A stretch of 64,000 nucleotides of DNA, taken from NCBI RefSeq assembly GCF_965641715.1, contig NZ_OZ282454.1; one strand, written 5' to 3'. Under the pieces are notes generated by a model, which made no database searches, was not told the DNA's origin, and worked only from the letters and a program-made list of their open reading frames with translations. The position numbers and the translations under genes are program-made. Position 1 is the stretch's first letter. Each line of letters opens with the position of its first letter. This DNA comes from Escherichia coli. GTDB taxonomy: Bacteria > Pseudomonadota > Gammaproteobacteria > Enterobacterales > Enterobacteriaceae. Shown here piece by piece: positions 18,493-43,549 of this stretch.

Positions 18493-18665
18493 CTTTACTT
18501 ATATTATCATGACTTCCACTCCCTGAACTGTTCGGCAATCATCCATAATGCTTTGTTGATTCGGATATCACCGTCAATGCCTGTAATTGCTCTTGTTCTG
18601 GTATTTTTACCGGAGGCACTTCGCCCCGATAATCCACCTTTTATCATATTCTCCTGAACCCGCTG

Positions 18666-19328
18666 CTAGGTTGTCCAGAGATCGTTCTGTTTATCCTCCC
18701 AACGGCGGGGAGTAATTATTTGTTCAGGCGTCACTGGCGTTTTATTTTCATCTTCATACCTGACCATCAATGCAGCTCTGCCAAATAAATATTGTTCGTC
18801 ACTGTTAAGATGTATCCCTTTCATTGTCTCCATATTTTCAGTGACTTTATCAAAGACACCGGGCACTTCATACGCTCCCTCAATAACCTGCCCGACAATA
18901 TCACCTTTATGTGGAACGCGGATTTCGCCAAAATTATTCCCGCACACCAGGCCATTTGTGTAGACAAAACGAAAAATTCCTGGGATCATCTGATAACTGG
19001 ATGAACCATCATGTGAATTAAGCAGGGTAATTTCAGGAACTTCTTTCCCGTTAATATGCCCTTCCCTGCGAAGACGTAACATATGTTTACTGTATTCGCG
19101 GCGTCCCAAATCACGAACCCGACTCTGACAGGCAAAGAACGGCTGGAAACCTTCATCACGTAACTTATTGATGATATTGATGGTTGGGATATATGTATAA
19201 CGCTCACTCCGGGATTCATGTTTATCACCAGAAAAAACAGATGGAACAAACTGCATTAATTCGTCATCCGTTAACGGGCGCTCACGGCGAATAGAATTAT
19301 ATCGACCAAAACGGGAAGCTAATCGCAT
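18666..19328 (-). CDS. hypothetical leading-region protein (possibly DUF932-like)
   Basis: 220 aa ORF; family assignment from memory only. Confidence 0.55.
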   Translation of the reverse strand: MRLASRFGRYNSIRRERPLTDDELMQFVPSVFSGDKHESRSERYTYIPTINIINKLRDEGFQPFFACQSRVRDLGRREYSKHMLRLRREGHINGKEVPEITLLNSHDGSSSYQMIPGIFRFVYTNGLVCGNNFGEIRVPHKGDIVGQVIEGAYEVPGVFDKVTENMETMKGIHLNSDEQYLFGRAALMVRYEDENKTPVTPEQIITPRRWEDKQNDLWTT

Positions 19329-20605: not shown

Positions 20606-21064
20606 GCAAAGGCCTCGTGGGTTAATGAAAATTAACTACGGGGCTTTTGTCCTTCTGCCACACGACAGGATAACAAACCACCTTCACGTCATGAGGCAGA
20701 AAGCCTCAAGCGCCGGGCACATCATAGCCCATATACCTGCACGCTGACCACATTCACTTTCCCTGAAAATAATCCGGTCGTTCAGCCAGTTCACGGGCAA
20801 TCAGTTCATCCGCAAACAGTGGTGCATGCCTGTTGATACGTTTCTCCAGATTCCGCCGTCGTACCACAGCCTTACGTTCTTCGCTCCAGCGGCGCACCTA
20901 GCGGTCAGAAATAAAATCCAGACAGACCGCATACCCTGCACCGGCAACCCAGCGTGACATAACGGATGCCGGTGCAGGCTGCCCCGCCTCCACCACTTCT
21001 GAAACCAGTTCATGCTCGCCAGGACAGGGAGAAGGCAGTTTCCAGCGCAATGAGTAACGCCACT

Positions 21065-21784
21065 TCACGCCGCCTCCCGGAGTTTGTTCGGCACCATCCA
21101 CCGCTCCATCTCACGGACAGCGTGACCGGCCTCTCTTGCTGCAAGACTGGCTTCCGCAATAACCTGCCAGAACGGCATATTCTGCCACTGCCAGCGTTCC
21201 ATTCCGGACAGTGACGGAAAACGCTCGCCCCACTGCCAGAACAGGGTTTCCAGGTCATGCTCTGCCACCCGGTCACTCCAGCGTGCATGCCAGCTTCCGA
21301 CTGTTTCCGGCGAATGGAATGCCAGTTCGATTTCAGCCTGAGCGACCAGCGCCTGGTACGCACGGGCTTTCTGCTCTGCCTCCCGTGCCTGCTGGCGGCT
21401 GTACTTCTGCATGACCAGCGCGGATTTATGGCGACTTCGCTCCCTGACACGAAACCGCACCGACGGAAACACCCCCTCTGCTGCATCACCGGGAAGGGGA
21501 AGGAGGCAGACCTCGCCCTGTGTTTCAATCAGCACATCGATGGCATACAGCCACTGAAGACGGTTGCCGTGCAGTTCTTCTGCGGTCAGGGACGGCATGA
21601 AAAATCGCAGGTCAGACAGCGATATCCTGCGGCTTCCGTTCAGACAGCGGAAAAACGCCCCCGCATACGGATATTCCGCCAGCGTGTTACCCTGATGGCG
21701 GCGTTTTTCTGTCTCCGCCACCGCCCGCCATGCGGCCTGTTGCTCTGTGCTGAGGGGAACCAGTGCCTGTGAACGTGCGCTCAT
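21065..21784 (-). CDS. psiA: PsiA plasmid SOS-inhibition protein A
   Basis: 239 aa, same length as F PsiA; directly downstream of psiB. Confidence 0.9.
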
Positions 21785-25972: not shown

Positions 25973-26536
25973 TCAGGCACGCAAACGAATAATCATCGTC
26001 GGAACACGGGTATAAGCAAACGTCCCGCGCGGCAGCTCCTCGCGGATGTCAGAAAACGGTAACAGCTTCTCCTGCTGGCGTGGCCCGTTCAGACAGACGG
26101 CGACCAGCACGCCACCCGGACGCAACAGGGAAAAGGCCCGCAGGATATGCCGGATATCCTGCCCGTGACTGAACGGCGGATTCATGATAATCCGGCTGTA
26201 ATACTGCGCTGGCTGCCAGTCCATGAAGTCATCACACTGCACCCTGACACCGTTAAAATTTTCCCGCAGATACCGGACCAGCCCGCTGTTAATCTCCACC
26301 GCATCACACATGGCCCCCGGCGCGATATCCCGAATCGCCCGCAGTATGGCTCCGGTGCCGGCAGAGGGCTCCAGAATGTGATCATGGTTGCTGATCTCCG
26401 CCAGCGTCACCAAGCGATCACAGACCGGGGCAGGTGTCACAAAGAGCTGAGATTCAGCCCGGATTTCAGCAACCGGTGCAGCGTTATCCAGCCCTGCGCG
26501 CATCAGCCTGATACGTTCTTTTAACTGACTGTGCAT
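25973..26536 (-). CDS. SAM-dependent N6-adenine DNA methyltransferase (small orphan MTase)
   Basis: 187 aa; motif I-like EPSAGTGA and motif IV NPPF. Confidence 0.75.
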   Translation of the reverse strand: MHSQLKERIRLMRAGLDNAAPVAEIRAESQLFVTPAPVCDRLVTLAEISNHDHILEPSAGTGAILRAIRDIAPGAMCDAVEINSGLVRYLRENFNGVRVQCDDFMDWQPAQYYSRIIMNPPFSHGQDIRHILRAFSLLRPGGVLVAVCLNGPRQQEKLLPFSDIREELPRGTFAYTRVPTMIIRLRA

Positions 26537-26583: not shown

Positions 26584-27945
26584 TTATTTCTGCGGGATTT
26601 CCGTGATTTTCATGTCGGTGATATACACATTCACCAGACGGAAATTGTTGTCCATTGTGCGGCGGTAACGATATGCTCCGTGCTCTTCTGTCTCTGCCAC
26701 ACTGCGCACGGCCTTACAGTCCCGGGGCAGGGCGGCCCACTCTGCCTTTGTCATTTCCCGGAAGCCTTCCCCCGGATAGTTGACTACAGGCGGACGCTTC
26801 GCGGCCTGTCTGGCGACAACGGCCTCTTCTGCCGATGGCGCTTTGTAGTCCGTGATGCGATCAGGCGTCACTTTCATCGTGCCACTGTACCCGAGGAAAC
26901 TGTAATTCGGCGTTGTGACTGAACTCACCGCCCCGTTGCTTTTGTTCACGCGGATGATGGTCAGCCACTCGCCCCGGCTGCAAACCTGCCCGCCCGGCTC
27001 AAAATCTTGTGTCCGGGTAACCACGCCGCCGCTTTCGTCCAGCATGGCACGCTCATAGATCAAGCGGTTCTGATAGTGGTTAACCCAGCGTTGCTGACGC
27101 TGAATCTGCCGTTCATGGCAGCGGATCGCAATTTCGCGGGCCTGCTCCGTGGTGATAATGTCATCATCCAGGGCCGACCATAACGATCGACTCCCTTCAT
27201 ACTGGCTTTTTTCTGCCGGGCGCGGATACCTGTCCAGCGGGAAACAGGCACTGATTCGGTCATAACTGCTGATAAGTTTTGCCATATTCAGATCCAGCGA
27301 TTCAGCCCGCCACATCGTCAGATATTTCTGCGACTGTGCGATGGTCTTTTCAGCCTTGCGCAAATCAGCCTCGATTTTTTTGATACGACGCCAGCGAACG
27401 TCCGGACGTTCTTTATACTTCGCGAGAAGCAGTGCCGACCGCGCCCGCGCCTCCCAGTATTCCGCACGTTCAAAGAGCATCACGGCACGTTTCATACCAT
27501 TTTCAATACGCTGCGCATCACGACGGGCGCGGCGTTCGCTGTGATGTCCCACAAGGATCGGCTGACCGGGCGGGATCATCGCGGCCAGTCTTTCCACTTC
27601 ATCAAGTGCCTGTGCGGATTCACTGGCCCGCTTTCCGCTGTATCCGGTAAACCGCTCCGCCCGTGCTTCCTGACGTTCAGCGAGCGTACTGTCTTCATCC
27701 TCAATCTCTCCGGCAAGTGAGAGGAGCACGTCTTCCCGGCCCGGTGTCCAGGCAGGAGCCACAAACAGCGCCTGTTTGGGTGCCCAGCGGAAACCGGCAT
27801 CATGGACTTTTTTATACGTCTCCGGGTCAAGACGTGACGCGGCATACAGGCGCAGTTTGTTGTCATCCGGTGAGTAGGTCGCGCGGTACATCTGCACAGG
27901 GCTGGCGGCTTCCGGGGCGGTCATGGTGATTGCTGCTAATGTCAT
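26584..27945 (-). CDS. hypothetical leading-region protein (possibly DUF3560-like)
   Basis: 453 aa ORF; family from memory only. Confidence 0.6.
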   Translation of the reverse strand: MTLAAITMTAPEAASPVQMYRATYSPDDNKLRLYAASRLDPETYKKVHDAGFRWAPKQALFVAPAWTPGREDVLLSLAGEIEDEDSTLAERQEARAERFTGYSGKRASESAQALDEVERLAAMIPPGQPILVGHHSERRARRDAQRIENGMKRAVMLFERAEYWEARARSALLLAKYKERPDVRWRRIKKIEADLRKAEKTIAQSQKYLTMWRAESLDLNMAKLISSYDRISACFPLDRYPRPAEKSQYEGSRSLWSALDDDIITTEQAREIAIRCHERQIQRQQRWVNHYQNRLIYERAMLDESGGVVTRTQDFEPGGQVCSRGEWLTIIRVNKSNGAVSSVTTPNYSFLGYSGTMKVTPDRITDYKAPSAEEAVVARQAAKRPPVVNYPGEGFREMTKAEWAALPRDCKAVRSVAETEEHGAYRYRRTMDNNFRLVNVYITDMKITEIPQK

Positions 27946-29588: not shown

Positions 29589-30014
29589 TCAGTCCAGTGC
29601 CGCATAAATCGCGTTACATTCGGGGTGAAATTCGATGTGGCTCCACAACTGCGCATCACGCATCCTGTACAGGTGTGCCAGCCCTGCGTTACCGCTGTCG
29701 TGGTACAGCCACAACTGGCGGTTAATCACAAGAGACATCAGAATGATGCCTGCGGCATCGGCACTGACCGTGCGGTCAAACCAGTTTTCACCGTTAACCA
29801 GATGAAAACGGTCGCCATCCGGCATCATGTAGCCGCCACCGTCCGGCAGGCGGATGAAATGCCAGAAGCCTCCCTGATATTCCGGCATCATTTTTTTCGC
29901 CAGCGCATACACTGATGCCTCGGCATACAGAAAATCGTTGCCAAACAGGTAAGGCAGAAAAGACAGACGGTCGATTTCTTCAACGTTCAGGGTGACAGAT
30001 TTTGCATACTGCAT
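29589..30014 (-). CDS. klcA: KlcA/ArdB-family anti-restriction protein
   Basis: about 141 aa from MQYAKS; recalled KlcA pattern DRLSFLP...FG...EASVYA...GGFWHF..LPDGGGYM.PD...VNGN...SADAAGI...AIYAALD. Confidence 0.78.
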   Translation of the reverse strand: MQYAKSVTLNVEEIDRLSFLPYLFGNDFLYAEASVYALAKKMMPEYQGGFWHFIRLPDGGGYMMPDGDRFHLVNGENWFDRTVSADAAGIILMSLVINRQLWLYHDSGNAGLAHLYRMRDAQLWSHIEFHPECNAIYAALD

Positions 30015-30120: not shown

Positions 30121-31459
30121 CATAAGCGCTAACTTAAGGGTTGAACCATCTGAAGAATGCGACGCCTCGGTGCCTCGTTAAGACGATGCCTCGCGTTCTT
30201 CAATTGCGTTTTGTAGGCTGTCAGGGATACTGTCCCACGAATGGCCACCTGTAAGCTCCAGATGACCATTTTTGTTATTCTCCACAACGAGTTAGTTCTT
30301 CTTTTCGGATCCGGCACTTCTGGGGGGGAAATCCAGCGATGGCTGGATTATGTCGTCAATTAAAAATGCGGCGAGTAGATTAGCAAATATCCACGCTTTC
30401 GCGAGTTCAGGTTCCTTTGCACGCAAAGCATCCAGGTGCAGCAAACTTTTGAGCCGCTTAAAAGCCAGTTCAATTTGCCATCGCAGACGGTAACAATCAG
30501 CCACTTGCTCTGCTGAATATTCATCTTCCGGTAATGATGTTAGCAATAGCACATGGCCCGCTGCTTCCAGCGTTTCCGCCTGAACTACTCGTCCTTTTCG
30601 ACGATTCTCGCTGAGCAGTCGGGTTTTACTGATTAATGCTTTTTCGGGAGGAAGTGATACGGCAATGAGACGTGCCGGAAAGGGAGCTCCGGCTTTTTTA
30701 TTACCTGAATTGCCTATCATTACAGTGGTTTCACCGTTCTTACCGCAATCCAGCCCGCGCAGAAAACCCATCATGTCAAAGCGCATTCCTTCTGCAGTTA
30801 ACCAGCGCAATCCTCGCCAGTGAACCCGGACGATATAATCAGCTTCTCCAAAAGCAAGTGAGCGGATACATTCGGGACGCGAACCGAATCCCCGGTCAGC
30901 AATGCGTATCTCGTCTGCCGTTTGCGCAAATCGGTCCAGCCGTTCAGCGTCTCTGCTGTCGGTTAGCTCAAAATCAGTGAACTGACAGGTATGAGGATCA
31001 TATCCCATATGTAGTCGCCATTCAGCGCTGCCGCCCCCGGGCGCACTGATTGCTGTTCCATCGACAAGACGCAATCTCTTTCCGCTTGTACAACCCGTAA
31101 CTGCGGCGCGTACAGCAAGTGTTTGTGCGGCAAGTATGCCAAACCAGTCGGCGGCATTCCGCAGCCGCTTCAGGAGAGCCACGTCAGATAATGTTGCAAC
31201 GTCATGGAGCTGAGCCCATGCAGTGACTTCACGTAATGACATCCCCCCGGGGCCGTAAGCCAGCCCCAGACGTAGCAGAGTTGCAGCATCACGAATTTCG
31301 CGGCGGCGGGTTAGAGCCCCGGCATTACGTGCCGAAGTATCCAGTTCTTCGGGCTTACCAATATGGGCCAGAATTGCTGACCAGTTATCGTGAGAGTAAT
31401 TCATCGGCACGTTAAATCATATCAGGCGTAATACCACAACCCTTAAGTTAGCGCTTATG
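30121..31459 (-). mobile_element. IS186 (IS4 family), complete, with target-site duplication
   Basis: 1339 bp; terminal inverted repeats CATAAGCGCTAACTTAAGGGTTG (30121-30143) and CAACCCTTAAGTTAGCGCTTATG (31437-31459); flanking direct repeat GGATTCTCCC(C). Confidence 0.9.
30292..31410 (-). CDS. IS186 transposase
   Basis: 372 aa ORF matching recalled IS186 transposase (MNYSHDNWSAILAHIGKPEELDTSARNAGALTRRREIRDAATLLRLGLAYGPGGMSLREV...). Confidence 0.92.
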   Translation of the reverse strand: MPMNYSHDNWSAILAHIGKPEELDTSARNAGALTRRREIRDAATLLRLGLAYGPGGMSLREVTAWAQLHDVATLSDVALLKRLRNAADWFGILAAQTLAVRAAVTGCTSGKRLRLVDGTAISAPGGGSAEWRLHMGYDPHTCQFTDFELTDSRDAERLDRFAQTADEIRIADRGFGSRPECIRSLAFGEADYIVRVHWRGLRWLTAEGMRFDMMGFLRGLDCGKNGETTVMIGNSGNKKAGAPFPARLIAVSLPPEKALISKTRLLSENRRKGRVVQAETLEAAGHVLLLTSLPEDEYSAEQVADCYRLRWQIELAFKRLKSLLHLDALRAKEPELAKAWIFANLLAAFLIDDIIQPSLDFPPRSAGSEKKN

Positions 31460-32230: not shown

Positions 32231-32698
32231 TCAGTCGTTTTCGTGTGTGTTGTTTTTCAGCAGGGTGCGGGCCTGATTAACCACCGCCTGACGGCGGGTA
32301 ACGCATTCCGGGACGGCGAGGCCGTAATCACGGGCGGCCCATTCACGTTTCCACAGTGCCTGTTCGGCGGTCTGAATCAGGGACGCCAGCAGTTCAGCCG
32401 GGACGGTCACCAGGCGGTTTTCTCTCACGTTATTGATGATCTCCATCGCCACGCCGGAAGATATACCGGATTCAGTCCGCTGGTCTTCCGGGATGTCCTC
32501 CAGACGCGCCAGGACGGTCCTGATTTCATGATCGGACAGGGAAATATCCATTCCGTCAGCGAGGGCCTGAATCTCTTCCGGGGACCAGATAACCAGCATC
32601 AACGGCGTGTCTCCCGGATACTTTGCTGCCAGCGCCCGGCACAGCGTTTCGCATGTTCCGTACATTCTCATCTCCTTCTCAGTCTTTAAAGCACGCAT
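32231..32698 (-). CDS. hypothetical protein, paralog of 29123-29542
   Basis: 155 aa; shared NRLVTVPAELL motif. Confidence 0.55.
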   Translation of the reverse strand: MRALKTEKEMRMYGTCETLCRALAAKYPGDTPLMLVIWSPEEIQALADGMDISLSDHEIRTVLARLEDIPEDQRTESGISSGVAMEIINNVRENRLVTVPAELLASLIQTAEQALWKREWAARDYGLAVPECVTRRQAVVNQARTLLKNNTHEND

Positions 32699-32900
32699 CC
32701 AGTTCCAGAATTTCGGTATATGCCTCCATCAGGAGGCGGTTTGCGCGAAACAACGTCTGACGCACCAGACGTTCCGGCAGGGTGTCAGCATTAAAGCTGT
32801 ACCGCCGCTCCATCTCATTCATGGTTGTACGCAGGTCGCACATGACATTGGCCACCTCCGCCACTTCGGCGCGAAGTATTTCGTGTCCGGCATAGTTCAT
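32679..32900 (-). CDS. hypothetical small protein
   Basis: 73 aa ORF, translationally coupled position. Confidence 0.4.
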   Translation of the reverse strand: MNYAGHEILRAEVAEVANVMCDLRTTMNEMERRYSFNADTLPERLVRQTLFRANRLLMEAYTEILELDACFKD

Positions 32901-33635
32901 TTACGCAGCCTCCGGCATAAACCAGTCATCATTCGCGGCCCCCTGCTGCATGGGCCGTTGCACGGCGGCAAGGCGTTGCTGCCCGGCACGGTGATACTGC
33001 TCAAGCAGCTCGATACCGATATACCGGCGTCCGGACTGGAGGGCGGCGACGCAGGTTGAGCCGCTGCCTGCAAACGGGTCCAGCACAATTGCGTTCGGGT
33101 GTGTGAAGCTCTCAATCAGCGGTTACAGGCTGGTAACGGGCTTTTCCGTCGGGTGATGGCGATTGCCCGAATATTTCCAGCCCAGCACGTCCGGCGGCGG
33201 GTTTTGTGGCAGACGTGGACGGCCTTTTGCCAGGATGTAGGCGCATTCGTGGCGATAGCCCACATATGCGGCCTTCGATGTGTAGTTTTTGGTGAAGACC
33301 AGGTGACCAACAACGCTGAATCCCGCATTTTTCCAGGCGGCCATAAAGCGATCGGCGCGGTTCCAGCCGTAGAAGCTGACCATCAGCGCATCTTTTTTGA
33401 GTACGCGGAACATTTCATTACAGGCCGGTTGCAGCCATTCATCGGTTTTATCGCCGGCAATGGTACGCCCTGAACGGTCACGGACCCCCACCAGGTAAGG
33501 CGGGTCGGTAAGTATGAGATCAATGGCGTTATCAGGGATACGGGCCATAACATCGATGCAGTTACCGAGGACAAAACGGGACATAACAACTGTATGAACG
33601 CATCCCCGTTTGCAAGGCATCCGTTGTTCTGACAT
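32901..33635 (-). pseudogene. beta-class DNA methyltransferase interrupted by in-frame ochre (TAA) at 33123-33125
   Basis: upstream ORF has DPPY and ...HHPTEKPVTSL; after TAA the same frame continues PLIESFTHPNAIVLDPFAGSGSTCVAALQ (motif I). Confidence 0.75.
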
Positions 33636-33699
33636 CGACGATTAGTTGCAGCTCTGTATCCGGCCTTATTGCAGCCAGAGCTGCGGGCCACTATGAGAT

Positions 33700-35200
33700 T
33701 CGCTGACCTGAGCCTTATTCTCCTTACGGACTTTATATCCCGGCTGTTATTCAGATTTATCAGGTCACGGTCTTACCTGTCGTTGTCATCACTCGGGCCG
33801 CCAGAGCAACCTTTCAGCATTCACCCTTTTGTTAAGAGTTCATTATTTATCGGTATCAGCGATTAATATGGTCTGATACTGACATGGTTCCTGTCATACT
33901 TACGGTCATGGGCAGCTATCGCCCATACTGTTCGTGCCAGCTTGTTTGCCATGGCGACGATAGCCACACTGGCTGGACGACGTTTTTTCAGTTCGGTTAT
34001 CCACGGACCAGGTTCTTTAGTCAGTAATGCTGCCGCCCTTGCGCCATGAATAAACAGGGTTCGCAGATATGTATCACCACGTTTGCTTATCCCCAGCAGG
34101 CGAATTTTCCCTCCTGAGCCAGTCTGTTTGGGCACCAGACCAACATAAGCCGCGAACTCTCGCCCTGATTTAAACGCTGATGCTTCCCCCATGGTGGCCA
34201 CCGCTGCCGTCGCAATAAGTGGCCCAACACCAGGAATATCCAGCAACCGCTTACAGGTCTCATTCTGTTTCGCCACGCTGGCAAGCTGTTTTTCGATGTC
34301 TTCTATCAGGGAGTCCAGCTCATTCAACCGCTTATACTGGTTTTTCAGTACCGTGATGAGATACGGTGGCAGTCTCTCTTTCATTCGTTCCAGTGCTTCA
34401 GGGAACTCCCGCTCCATTGCTGCCCGACCTTTGTGGATGGTTTCACCAAACTCCAGTAACGTCCCGTGTAGGGCGTTAATTTGTGCGATCCGGAACTTCA
34501 CCAGTTGCATGCGGGTACGGTGCAGAACCAGTACCGACTGCTGTTCTTCTGTTTTGACGGCAATTTCTTTACCGGGCTGCTGAACCGCCATCCAGATAGC
34601 CCGGGCATCCATCACGTCGTTCTTGTTTCCCATGACGAATGCCTTAACGAAGCGGGCCTGTAACAAGCGGACGTTATGCCCCAGCTTTGTCAGCTCCCGT
34701 GCCCAGTGCTGAGAGCCTCCACAGGCCTCCATACCAATCAGGCAGGGTTCCCGGTTGCTGAAATATTCAAGAAAATCTCTGCCACGAAGTTGCTTATCCA
34801 CCACTTCACCTGTGTTCTCATCAATGAAGTGAACCTGAATCAGATGTTTTGCGATATCAACGCCAACCGGTGTATATTTCATTTGTGGAGTCTCCAGTCT
34901 GAGGGAACTTTATGCATCCCGTATTGGGCACAATGATGCCGGAAATCTGCGAGGCTCCACACCTCTCTGATTTCCCCCTTTATTCATCACTGTGCTCCGG
35001 ATTTAATGTTGGGGGATGCGTTCATCTCATTCTCCTTCTCTTACAGAAGACACCGGGAGGGCCCCCCTGTGGTGCCCGTTCCCCGCTGCCTGTGGGTTGT
35101 TCACCGCGTCCGGTAACGGGTCAGGCCGACCGTGGAATATCGCAGCCGTCGTCTTTTTGACGGCGAGAATATGCCGTGAAAGCGGCTTGAAGGGCGTTCA
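33700..35200 (-). mobile_element. IS110-family element (boundaries approximate, not determined)
   Basis: transposase gene plus non-coding flanks; this family lacks clear terminal inverted repeats so ends cannot be fixed by eye. Confidence 0.3.
33863..34882 (-). CDS. IS110-family transposase/recombinase
   Basis: 339 aa; MEACGGS...NKND.MDA (DEDD N-terminal) and LLDIPGVGPLIA...GLVPKQ.GSGGK...GISKRGD C-terminal motifs. Confidence 0.85.
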   Translation of the reverse strand: MKYTPVGVDIAKHLIQVHFIDENTGEVVDKQLRGRDFLEYFSNREPCLIGMEACGGSQHWARELTKLGHNVRLLQARFVKAFVMGNKNDVMDARAIWMAVQQPGKEIAVKTEEQQSVLVLHRTRMQLVKFRIAQINALHGTLLEFGETIHKGRAAMEREFPEALERMKERLPPYLITVLKNQYKRLNELDSLIEDIEKQLASVAKQNETCKRLLDIPGVGPLIATAAVATMGEASAFKSGREFAAYVGLVPKQTGSGGKIRLLGISKRGDTYLRTLFIHGARAAALLTKEPGPWITELKKRRPASVAIVAMANKLARTVWAIAAHDRKYDRNHVSIRPY

Positions 35201-35408
35201 TCAGAAAAGGGCGACAGGCTGGCGTACACTGTCACCGACGCCAGCCGGAAGTGGTAAAGGCGCCCGTCCCGTGCCCGCCGGACGCGGGACACTGACCACA
35301 GGCAGCGTTTATGCCGCGCCGCGTCAGCCGGCGCAGTAAAAAGAGGAGCACGGCGACATCCTTTACCGGAAAAGAAACGGGCGGTTGCCCGCCCGTCTCC
35401 GTCATACT

Positions 35409-36035
35409 TCATCCGCCATAATGCACCACATTGTCGACTATCCACGCAGGTCCGGTGACTTCCGGCAGCTCATCGTCATCTGTCGGGGAAGACCATTCCA
35501 GTTCCCCCCACAGCACATCAACGAGCTCTCCGCGCTCATACAACTGCCAGCCACAGAAATCACAGCCCTGTTCGGCATACCAGTGCTCCAGCGTGCAGCT
35601 GAAACGGCGGCTTAATTCTGCAATAACGTCGCTTTCCGGCTGACACCACGGAGTGTCGAAATCAACCTGAATGAAGTTGTCTCCCTGACTACTGATATTC
35701 ACCTCATACCCCACAGGCCACTTCACGCCATACCGTTCCGTATACCAGTGATATGCAGAAGGAACACCGTTCAGAACACCACCGTTAAAGCCATTCACTT
35801 CAACATCCAGGCGGGTCGGCAGAACCGTCAGCAGGTCAAACGGCATGGTATTTTCCGGCAGTACGTTGTCACACAGACGGTTCCACCACACCGATACATC
35901 CTCGTTACTCCAGAAGCCACACCAGTCACCTCTTTTTGCGGTGAAAAGTGCGGTGATGGTATCCCTGACATCGTCCGGTAATCCTTCCCAGCGACGCTGT
36001 CCAGTACCGCTCTGCAGCCAGAGTTCATGCAGCAT
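35409..36035 (-). CDS. hypothetical acidic Trp/Cys-rich protein
   Basis: ORF 35409-36302; start placed at internal Met (MLHELW...) because upstream part overlaps umuD-like remnant on opposite strand; hairpin terminator after stop. Confidence 0.4.
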   Translation of the reverse strand: MLHELWLQSGTGQRRWEGLPDDVRDTITALFTAKRGDWCGFWSNEDVSVWWNRLCDNVLPENTMPFDLLTVLPTRLDVEVNGFNGGVLNGVPSAYHWYTERYGVKWPVGYEVNISSQGDNFIQVDFDTPWCQPESDVIAELSRRFSCTLEHWYAEQGCDFCGWQLYERGELVDVLWGELEWSSPTDDDELPEVTGPAWIVDNVVHYGG

Positions 36036-36094: not shown

Positions 36095-36336
36095 ACCAGG
36101 CTGGCGTGCAGAATGGTGATCTGCTGGTAGTGGACAGGGCCGAAAAACCACAACACGGGGACATCGTTATCGCTGAGATCGACGGGGAGTTCACCGTCAA
36201 ACGACAGCTGTTGCGCCCACGCCCGGCACTGGAGCCGGTTTCAGACAGCCCGGAGTTCCGCACACTGTATCCGGAAAACATCTGTATTTTTGGTGTTGTC
36301 ACTCACGTGATACACAGGACGCGGGAGTTATGCTGA
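36095..36336 (+). pseudogene. UmuD/MucA-like (S24 peptidase) gene, 5'-truncated
   Basis: C-terminal part ...SGESM...GDLLVVDRA...HGDIVIAEIDGEFTVKRL...FGVVTHVIH matches UmuD'; N-terminal region absent. Confidence 0.6.
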
Positions 36337-37576
36337 TGTTTGCACTGGCTGATATCAACAGTTTCTACGCCTCATGTGAAAAAGTTTTCCGCCCGGACCT
36401 TCGCAACGAACCGGTCATCGTACTCAGCAATAACGATGGCTGTGTGATCGCGCGCAGCCCGGAGGCAAAAGCTCTTGGCATCAGAATGGGGCAGCCCTGG
36501 TTTCAGGTCAGACAAATGCACCTGGAGAAGAAAATACATGTATTTTCCAGCAATTATGCACTGTACCACAGCATGAGCCAACGGGTTATGGCTGTTCTGG
36601 AGTCGCTTTCTCCCGCAGTTGAGCCCTACTCAATTGATAAAATGTTCATTGATTTGCGGGGGGTGAACCGTTGCATCTCTCCGGAGGTTTTGGTCATCAG
36701 CTCAGGGAACAAGTAAAGAGCTGGACAGGACTCGCCATGGGGGTGGGCATTGCGCCTACAAAAACGCTGGCCAAAAGTGCACAGTGGGCAACAAAGCAAT
36801 GGCCACAGTTTTCCGGTGTGGTCGCGCTGACGGCAGAAAACCGTAATCGAACCTTCAAGTTACTGGGGCTGCAGCCTGTTGGTGAAGTCTGGGGAGTAGG
36901 ACGCAGACTGACGGAAAAGCTGAATGCGCAGGGTATTAACACAGCGCTGCAGCTGGCGCAGGCTAACACGGCATTCATCCGGAAAAACTTCAGCGTCATT
37001 CTTGAGCATACAGTACGCGAACTCAACGGCGAGTCCTGCATATCTCCGGAAGAAGCCCCACCGGCAAAACAGCAGATTGTCTGTAGTCGCAGTTTTGGTG
37101 AACGAATCACAGACAAAGATGCCATGCACCAGGCTGTTGTTCAGTATGCAGAGCGGGCCGCAGAGAAACTACGTGGGGAGCGTCAGTATTGCCGGCAGGT
37201 GGCGACATTTATACGAACGTCACCCTTTGCAGTGAAAGCCCCCTGTTACAGCAATTCCGCTGTGGAAAAGCTTCCATTGCCTACACAGGACAGCCGGGAC
37301 ATTATTGCCGCAGCATGCAGAGCGTTAAACCATGTCTGGCGTGAAGGGTACCGCTATATGAAGGCAGGAGTCATGCTGGCTGATTTCACACCATCGGGTA
37401 TAGCGCAGCCGGGATTATTTGATGAAATCCAGCCCCATAAAAACAGCGAAAAGTTAATGAAAACACTCGATGAACTGAACCAGTCGGGAAAAGGGAAAGT
37501 GTGGTTTGCGGGGCGAGGAACCGCCCCTGAATGGCAAATGAAACGGGAAATGTTGAGTCAGTGTTATATGTATTAG
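36330..37576 (+). pseudogene. UmuC/MucB-like Y-family polymerase gene, frameshifted at T4 run 36688-36691 and 3'-truncated by IS
   Basis: ORF 36330-36716 (LADINSFYASCE...) and ORF 36671-37576 are consecutive parts in different frames; C-terminus ends inside IS481-family left end. Confidence 0.8.
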
Positions 37577-43300: not shown

Positions 43301-43549
43301 TCATGTTGGCGCGCGAATTGCGTCAGATTAAAAAAAAGGATAACGTCAGACCTCATCTTTTCAGAAAAAGATATCTTTTAGTCGCCACGACACAAGAAAA
43401 AAAACTATTATTATTAAGAATGTGTTTTGATTGTTACTATGGGTAAATAGTATTATCCAGAAAATTACCAACATATATTAAACATTTTTTTAAGATTTTA
43501 TTATATTATTTTCTGGTTATCTTGGATATTACATTATATAGGAGGGATT

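Follow-up and report, generated by a model that had tools for sequence, protein, structure and literature searches.

The plasmid-borne DNA methyltransferase M.EcoGIX (WP_000086153.1) of pESBL from E. coli O104:H4, known as YfbB in R64 and as YfeA in F, has been placed in the beta family of DNA methyltransferases, and mutation of its DPPY motif to APPA inactivates the enzyme (Fomenkov et al., PMC7736820). M.EcoGIX is an orphan of IncI/IncF leading regions with promiscuous m6A activity on single-stranded DNA in a loose SAY context; it is silent during vegetative growth and has no fixed double-strand motif (PMC7736820). Upon entry into the recipient it protects pESBL against EcoRI and EcoGIII (PMC4288162). 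The operon is induced early in transconjugants; it is transcribed on the entering single strand from a 'class 3' hairpin promoter that precedes the gene and whose TSS was determined by 5' RACE (PMC12672017). Single-strand SAY m6A activity is known only for M.EcoGIX and M.BceJIII (PMC7736820, PMC4288162). For the insertion sequences of the IS1111 group, which are also of concern here, a seekRNA mechanism has been described (PMC11187229).

The methylase gene studied here is located in a 64,000-nucleotide stretch of E. coli DNA, which as a whole is called the window (Table 1). If codon 154 is restored to glutamine, the encoded protein and M.EcoGIX are of equal length and identical at 211 of 227 positions (93%); M.EcoGIX itself reaches 492 bits on NF010253 (cutoff 244). 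The plasmid lineage of the window and pESBL have the gene order DUF1281, small ORF, methylase, hp9, DUF1380, ychA-like and ardA in common. Past ardA follow ssb, parB-like, psiB, psiA, hok, DUF932, SLT and traM, all on the minus strand except SLT. This order was taken from the annotated plasmid pPE041_2, which is 99.9% identical to the window. The methylase is found about 15 kb into the leading region, where it reads toward oriT among ardA, ssb and psiB. Its neighbours are an insertion sequence (IS), hp9, the DUF1380 gene and the ychA-like gene, and a restriction endonuclease is not annotated nearby in four related records. The initial annotation, which was made from the sequence of the window alone, had described the gene as an orphan beta-class methyltransferase and as a leading-region anti-restriction methylase. 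Both attributions agree with the similarity to M.EcoGIX, the shared gene order and the lack of an adjacent endonuclease gene.

The methylase gene comprises 684 nt (227 codons plus stop) and aligns over this entire length without gaps to the intact genes of pDETEC14, pSTEC299_1 and pESBL-EA11. Translation of 33635..32901 (-) yields one frame that is interrupted by only one stop. At codon 154, the position of the TAA in the window, all aligned intact homologues have CAA (Gln), which is therefore the ancestral codon. The lesion amounts to one transition, C>T when read on the coding strand and G>A at 33125 of the plus strand. As a result the uninterrupted reading frame of 225-227 codons that characterizes the family is absent from the window. 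DPPY (motif IV) is situated N-terminally and DPFAGSGST (motif I) C-terminally in the same frame, which is the beta-class order, and the two are parted only by the TAA, exactly as had been noticed at first. The N-terminal fragment (153 aa) matches Pfam PF01555 (N6_N4_Mtase) with 59.7 bits at profile positions 1-132, and the C-terminal fragment (73 aa) with 62.7 bits at positions 174-219; for comparison, 138.8 bits (positions 1-219) are reached by an intact homologue. As each half matches the profile separately, they represent a genuine interrupted gene and not a chance pair of ORFs. The truncated product of 153 residues has kept DPPY and HPTEKP but has lost DPFAGSGST and everything downstream of it, i.e. 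the C-terminal blocks that align with CcrM and M.RsrI. With the catalytic DPPY half retained and the AdoMet-binding motif I missing, this product would presumably be unable to methylate DNA. A Dcm hot spot was considered as the source of the C>T change and rejected, since the context ...AGCCTGCAACC... does not contain CCWGG. The ATG of hp9 directly follows the methylase stop, so that translational coupling between the two genes, if there is any, would be lost through the premature stop.

Taken together with the results described below, we estimate the probability at about 0.85 that the window carries a dead orthologue of M.EcoGIX, in which an inherited ochre codon is combined with a targeted insertion of an IS between the Shine-Dalgarno (SD) sequence and the ATG and with later decay.

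Table 1. Position of the methylase pseudogene, the insertion sequence and associated features in the window.
Feature	Coordinates	Strand	Basis
hp9, 73-aa downstream gene (222 nt)	32679..32900	-	ATG abuts methylase stop (TAAATG)
M.EcoGIX-family (PRK13699 / PF01555) beta-class adenine DNA methyltransferase pseudogene	32901..33584	-	gap-free alignment to intact genes, Pfam, PGAP
Motif I DPFAGSGST (AdoMet binding), codons 169-177, 3' of TAA, untranslated	33080..33054	-	translation, Pfam, alignment
Premature ochre TAA, codon 154	33125..33123	-	plus strand reads 'tta'
HPTEKP, final conserved element before TAA	33155..33138	-	near-invariant in alignment; aligns with HPTQKP of CcrM (6pbd), M.RsrI
Motif IV DPPY (catalytic), codons 27-30	33506..33495	-	invariant columns D27 P28 P29 Y30
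1,441-bp IS1111-type (IS110 family) insertion sequence, gene-parallel, between methylase SD and ATG	33591..35031	-	comparison with empty sites of pESBL, pDETEC14
Putative guide (seekRNA) segments in IS 3' non-coding region	33706..33765	-	covariation with flanks in related elements
339-aa IS110-family RNA-guided DEDD-type transposase	33863..34882	-	NF033542 329 bits, cutoff 140
Orphaned methylase Shine-Dalgarno AAGGAG	35032..35037	-	empty-site comparison with pESBL
Long hairpin, transferred (template) strand, 5' of SD; candidate class 3 single-strand promoter	35084..35310 (approximate)	+	DNA folding
DUF932 nonsense pseudogene, TGG>TAG at codon 221 (18668..18666)	18507..19328	-	PGAP 'internal stop' in pPE041_2

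The occurrence of the TAA in other plasmids was examined in public records. A stretch of 851 nt that includes the TAA is identical in three of these (CP055625.1, CP057088.1 and NZ_JBXSFL010000003.1), the plasmids that carry the allele being pRHB38-C13_2 and pRHB38-C15_2 from a UK pig farm and pPE041_2 from Korean swine. On the identical sequence of pPE041_2 the PGAP label is 'DNA methylase, internal stop'. The window methylase is thus an ordinary pseudogene of a characterised family that was already flagged by RefSeq in identical sequence, and its initial designation as a pseudogene was correct. The window represents a fourth assembly of this lineage, because IS421 at 30122-31458 is present in the window alone; the four TAA-bearing assemblies differ among themselves in IS content and by scattered SNPs. 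The allele deviates by a single base from thousands of homologues, as would be expected if the TAA were an error of sequencing or assembly and the gene were intact in the cell. However, the same base was found in all four assemblies (the window, two from the UK pig farm and one from Korean swine), which excludes a random sequencing error, and the accompanying missense changes and the TAG in the DUF932 gene, both described below, are likewise shared. The chance that the stop codon is an artefact is therefore practically negligible.

Of 4,883 matching plasmid records only 2-3 contain the exact 61-mer centred on the TAA, and of 3,323 matching records from E. coli 1-2 do so; almost all other matches are one base off. 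In an alignment of 32 sequences, spanning homologues down to 72% identity, Q154 is at least 90% conserved. An intact methylase is annotated in 56 of 59 carrier plasmids, which were sampled evenly down a ranking of about 5,000 carriers. The TAA allele occurs in a single small lineage of pig-associated IncFIA/FIB plasmids. A natural split of the homologues at the TAA had been named initially as an observation that would overturn the pseudogene. The large clusters of homologous proteins are 225-227 aa in length and codon 154 is CAA, by which a naturally split gene is ruled out. Methylome data had also been suggested as a check, but they would not be informative for an enzyme family that is silent in vegetative cells and lacks a fixed double-strand motif (PMC7736820).

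An active enzyme might still be made by readthrough of the UAA, by assembly of re-initiated fragments or in a natural two-subunit arrangement. Split methyltransferases exist in other families, and in the window an in-frame GTG at 33086, just before motif I, opens an ORF of 61 aa. This GTG, however, has no SD sequence within reach (upstream it reads ...CACACCCGAACGCAATT-GTG), on which ground re-initiation at this position was rejected, and the resulting fragment would start right at motif I without the preceding helix. The methylase ORF is itself also without its own SD sequence. In addition, the stop is not conserved, unlike a recoding site, and none of the homologues is split here. Production of an active enzyme by any of these routes is thus very improbable.

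The initial annotation had let the gene begin at 33635, which is 51 nt too far upstream. By correspondence to the annotated intact homologues of pDETEC14 (IncI1), pSTEC299_1 and pESBL-EA11 the start is the ATG at 33584, and the 51 nt in question (33585-33635) consist of 45 nt of the right end of an IS and of the 6-nt spacer GTTGTT. In pESBL the empty site reads GTAAGAGAAGGAG-C-GTTGTT-ATG, including the SD sequence AAGGAG, whereas the occupied site in the window reads GTAAGAGAAGGAG-[1,441 bp]-GTTGTT-ATG. The insertion site is accordingly AAGGAG^G(C/T)TGTTATG, the target being also written AAGGAG^GCTGTTATG. A target-site duplication was not seen at the IS; instead, one base (C or T) of the empty sites of pESBL and pDETEC14 is missing when the site is occupied. 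The 14-bp subterminal inverted repeats ATGAACGCATCCCC / GGGGATGCGTTCAT (35025..35012 and 33607..33594) stand 6 nt and 3 nt from the ends of the element. Its 3' non-coding region measures 272 nt, i.e. the element has the IS1111-group layout with subterminal repeats. The same junction between IS and methylase was observed in 13 plasmid records with differing backbones, which include IncF plasmids of E. coli O104:H21, E. albertii, marmot STEC and isolates from sheep and pig farms. The IS end gave no match (0) in a scan of genome contigs, and Rfam gave no match over 32500-35600.

As a consequence of the insertion, the SD sequence of the methylase now precedes, by 6 nt, an ORF of 12 codons whose start lies at 35025 within the left end of the IS. 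Before the methylase ATG, where the sequence reads ...GGGGATGCGTTCATACAGTTGTT, there is no SD sequence at a usable distance. Upstream of the orphaned SD sequence a long hairpin is predicted that, folded as DNA, has a z of -4.4 in the window and of -6.1 in the equivalent region of pESBL, with the same long stem in both. This hairpin is a candidate for the class 3 promoter that has been described for M.EcoGIX. An SD sequence and a candidate hairpin promoter are therefore both present, but they are not directly upstream of the gene: the 1,441-bp IS intervenes and the ORF is now 1.44 kb away from both. The insertion would be expected to weaken or abolish expression of the methylase, after which selection on the gene may have relaxed; later decay would then account for the ochre codon and for the substitutions of conserved residues.

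Downstream of the transposase gene, the 3' non-coding region of the IS reads, at 33765..33706, ...CTGAATAACAGCCGGGATATAAAGTCCGTAAGGAGAATAAGG... and contains AAGGAG-AAT, which equals the left flank plus the tip of the IS, and ATAACAGC, which is the reverse complement of the right flank GCTGTTAT. The latter flank is that of the sheep plasmids; the right flank in the window is GTTGTTAT and has one mismatch. Since the non-coding segments match both flanks, the insertion appears to have been targeted to the SD-to-ATG site by an IS1111-type element with a corresponding guide. Related elements recovered from 16 metagenome contigs were used for comparison, and in these two guide positions covary with the flanks of the insertion site. 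The guide segments AGGAG and ATGCTGC belong to the insertion site CGAGGAG^GCAGCAGCAT, the segments GGAG and ATGCTTCC to CCGGAG^GGAAGCAT, and the segments ATGGG and ATAAGCT to TATGGG^GAAGCTTAT. A match between guide and flanks, with both flanks visible or well matched, was found in four other contexts (L014/L025, L017, L022/L024 and L009), and the match was merely partial in two more (L010/L019 and L027). In 8 of the 10 contexts seen the related elements were located in SD-to-ATG spacers, the chance expectation being about 5% per site. A literature search for IS1111 in combination with Shine-Dalgarno targeting gave nothing relevant. If it holds, the preference of this IS clade for SD-to-ATG spacers is a targeting habit for which that search found no description. 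One may speculate further that the primary lesion was the RNA-guided insertion of this element, its guide being programmed for the SD-to-ATG spacer of the M.EcoGIX family, that members of the clade with other guides silence other genes likewise, and that the leader ORF of the IS, behind a host SD sequence and a promoter active only upon entry, could switch the IS on at each conjugative transfer. This combined proposal is tentative and we regard it as rather doubtful.

Compared with the gene of pDETEC14, the nearest intact allele, the window methylase has 7 nt differences, of which five are non-synonymous (F34V, V77A, L130P, Q154* and A211P). Conservation at F34, L130 and A211 is 90% or higher, and among the 32 aligned sequences only that of the window deviates there. 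The initial claim that the gene was inactivated by a single ochre codon is therefore valid as far as the TAA is concerned, but the TAA is not the sole lesion, in view of the IS between SD and ATG and of three missense changes at near-invariant residues. The ratio of non-synonymous to synonymous changes is 5:2 in the window versus 29:54 between intact alleles, a difference that is not significant on its own (p = 0.10); a ratio of 5:2 is what unconstrained evolution would be expected to produce.

A second IS-bearing lineage, consisting of pRHB06-C20_2, three sister records and the metagenome contig L018, has lost the methylase independently by a +1 A frameshift near codon 85. An intact methylase is absent from 6 of the 13 IS-bearing records versus 3 of the 59 evenly sampled carriers, a difference with a Fisher p of 0.0007 by record and of 0.06 by lineage; the records behind the 6/13 are clonally related, and the comparison is not corrected for relatedness. 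The ochre codon could nevertheless have been the first and by itself sufficient inactivation, the IS being incidental because it arrived later or left expression adequate. An intact ORF is retained in 7 of the 13 IS-bearing records, some of them with diverged alleles of about 92% identity, which implies that decay is not an inevitable result of the insertion and that silencing of the gene may be incomplete. Moreover, the window allele is 7 nt away from an IS-free allele versus 31 nt from that of the IS-bearing pSTEC299_1. This suggests repeated insertion at one site or recombination, and the insertion in the window may be recent. On the other hand, the insertion removes the only good SD sequence and leaves the ORF 1.44 kb away from its promoter, the second IS-bearing lineage lost its ORF by a separate event, and disruption is enriched among the IS-bearing records. 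We therefore consider it possible, but less probable, that the ochre codon came first and was sufficient, and prefer the sequence of events in which the targeted insertion preceded the decay. An intermediate allele, either the TAA without the IS or the IS with this allele and CAA, was not found among the records, all TAA carriers having the IS. The insertion of the IS before the nonsense mutation is the least certain step of our explanation.

A second point-nonsense lesion had been reported for the window in the initial annotation, and it proved to be genuine. It concerns the TAG in the DUF932 gene, which is common to the window and the Korean pPE041_2, the homologue in pAA-EA11 having TGG. 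In addition, umuC is frameshifted and the DUF1281 gene truncated in this lineage (both in pPE041_2), and the umuC stretch is identical in the window; the IS421 mentioned above is inserted about 100 nt upstream of ardA in the window only. The leading region of this plasmid lineage is evidently eroding. Its lesions are inherited and of mixed type, which indicates that they are neither errors nor the signature of mutagenesis. From the two nonsense codons it had been surmised that the plasmid was decaying, mutagenised or burdened with sequence errors. Only decay is borne out, since both nonsense codons are present in the Korean assembly and the methylase TAA is found in the two UK assemblies as well. 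A strand-specific mutational signature that would join the two nonsense codons was also dismissed, because the change is C>T in the methylase and G>A in DUF932 on the same coding strand. Lost conjugation as the cause of drift in the leading region is not supported for the window, in which the visible tra genes are open: at 1-13.5 kb three open frames correspond in size to traB (475 aa), traC (876 aa) and traN (602 aa). CP057088.1 is typed as conjugative. In pPE041_2, traB is truncated.

Loss of the methylase could also have been favoured by selection, for example if m6A exposed the plasmid to modification-dependent restriction or hindered PolI-dependent replicons. Fomenkov et al. (PMC7736820) describe the sensitivity of M.EcoGIX-modified DNA to EcoKMrr in vivo and effects on the copy number of PolI-dependent plasmids, and two lineages have lost the gene independently of each other. 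However, judged by the even sample, about 95% of some 5,000 carrier plasmids have an intact gene, which indicates net purifying selection, and the TAA allele is limited to its one small pig-associated lineage. As DUF932 and umuC are broken in the same plasmid, general erosion fits better, and a selective advantage of the loss seems unlikely. Erosion of a gene deprived of its SD sequence by a targeted IS remains the preferred interpretation.

The plasmids with the TAA allele are a natural knock-out of M.EcoGIX function in which the conjugation apparatus has apparently been kept. Without this function, they are predicted to transfer less well into recipients with restriction systems. The RNA-guided IS is a more interesting by-product of the analysis than the methylase pseudogene itself. 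If true, a guide that matches the ribosome-binding region would show a mobile element disabling the anti-defence functions of a plasmid with sequence precision.

In comparison with known systems, the window copy is closest to M.EcoGIX, with which it has the beta-class motif order, the position in the leading region, the orientation and the neighbouring genes in common; the upstream hairpin regions of the window and pESBL are about 96% identical. It differs from M.EcoGIX by the TAA at codon 154, by the missense changes at F34, L130 and A211 and by the IS between SD and ATG. Given these differences the window copy is not expected to be expressed or active, and the promiscuous SAY m6A methylation and the protection upon entry are predicted to be absent. 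M.BceJIII of the Burkholderia cenocepacia plasmid pBCA072 is likewise a plasmid-borne orphan of the beta class with promiscuous single-strand SAY m6A activity (PMC7736820); it is a distant homologue on another type of plasmid and is likened to the M.EcoGIX class by description (PMC7736820). CcrM, M.RsrI and other solved beta-class enzymes (6pbd, 1eg2, 5hfj) share HPT(E/Q)KP, the DPF.G.G.T block and the N-terminal DPPY. These enzymes, however, are sequence-specific and act on double-stranded DNA, some with cognate endonucleases, and the similarity is restricted to the motif blocks (E ~1e-17 to 1e-12). As to the IS, ISEc11 (1,443 bp) is close in size to the element in the window (1,441 bp), and in ISEc11/IS1111 elements, as in the window IS, subterminal repeats are combined with an extended 3' non-coding region, parts of which match both flanks (PMC11187229). 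The two are nevertheless not the same element, because their targets differ: ISEc11 inserts in GTGAAAATACTG, whereas the window IS and its relatives occupy SD-to-ATG spacers instead.

The IS1111-type element of the window and its relatives in L009-L027 share the terminus ...GGGGATGCGTTCATACA. In 8/10 distinct contexts the element of this clade was found between a GGAG-type SD and the ATG, which lies 6-8 nt downstream, and at these sites its orientation is that of the gene. Among the genes concerned are, besides the M.EcoGIX-family methylase gene, ushA of Shigella pCP301 and an antitoxin gene of pSTEC299_2. Within the 3' non-coding region, two segments covary with the flanks. The putative guides of this clade are repeatedly directed at translation-initiation regions. 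The left end of the element holds a 12-codon ORF (MNASPNIKSGAQ), which after insertion is positioned 6 nt behind the SD of the host gene.

The methylase has been lost independently in IS-bearing IncFIA/FIC plasmids from sheep farms, and in a metagenome contig (L018). The lesion in the copies of L008 and L018 is an additional A (+1) within the TGGAAAAAT run, near codon 85. The PLSDB protein table has no entry for the gene, whose locus tag is skipped.

Features of the window and related records
Feature	Position	Strand	Remark
DUF932 leading-region gene	18507-19328	-	stop at 18666-18668
Short ORF downstream of psiA	20754-21068	-	PGAP label in pPE041_2
Class I SAM-dependent methyltransferase-like gene, second in leading region	25973-26536	-	187 aa
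DUF3560 gene	26584-27945	-	453 aa
ardA	29589-30014	-	
IS421 (IS4 family)	30122-31458		~100 nt upstream of ardA
IS1111-type element	33591-35031	-	relatives in L009-L027
Long conserved hairpin	35084-35310	+ (transferred strand)	upstream of orphaned SD
umuC stretch	36336-37576	+	identical to pPE041_2 umuC
AIDA-I autotransporter adhesin and its heptosyltransferase	about 43548-48586	+	mapping to L005
Second methylase knock-out			L008 (CP057981.1, pRHB06-C20_2), together with three sister records; L018

The initial annotation had called the methylase stop the second point-nonsense lesion in the window. The first is probably the TGG>TAG change at codon 221 of the DUF932 gene, which is common to the window and pPE041_2, a Korean swine plasmid of the same lineage. 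In the latter plasmid umuC is marked 'frameshifted' by PGAP and the adjoining DUF1281 gene is 5'-truncated. There the short ORF is labelled 'theronine dehydrogenase, internal stop'; it looks like a doubtful gene call and not a third genuine nonsense lesion. The methyltransferase-like and DUF3560 genes are intact in the window, and both are truncated by a deletion in pPE041_2. The adhesin and its heptosyltransferase are flanked by IS481 copies, and this cargo fits a pig-associated origin of all four lineage members.

IS421 is absent in the three closest public relatives; other E. coli plasmids carry it at the same flanks as the window. It has probably cut ardA off from its own single-strand promoter. 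Upstream of the orphaned methylase SD, the hairpin is now oriented into the IS. Its DNA fold gave z = -4.4 in the window versus -6.1 in pESBL, the plasmid encoding M.EcoGIX, and it probably corresponds to the class 3 single-strand promoter described in the literature.
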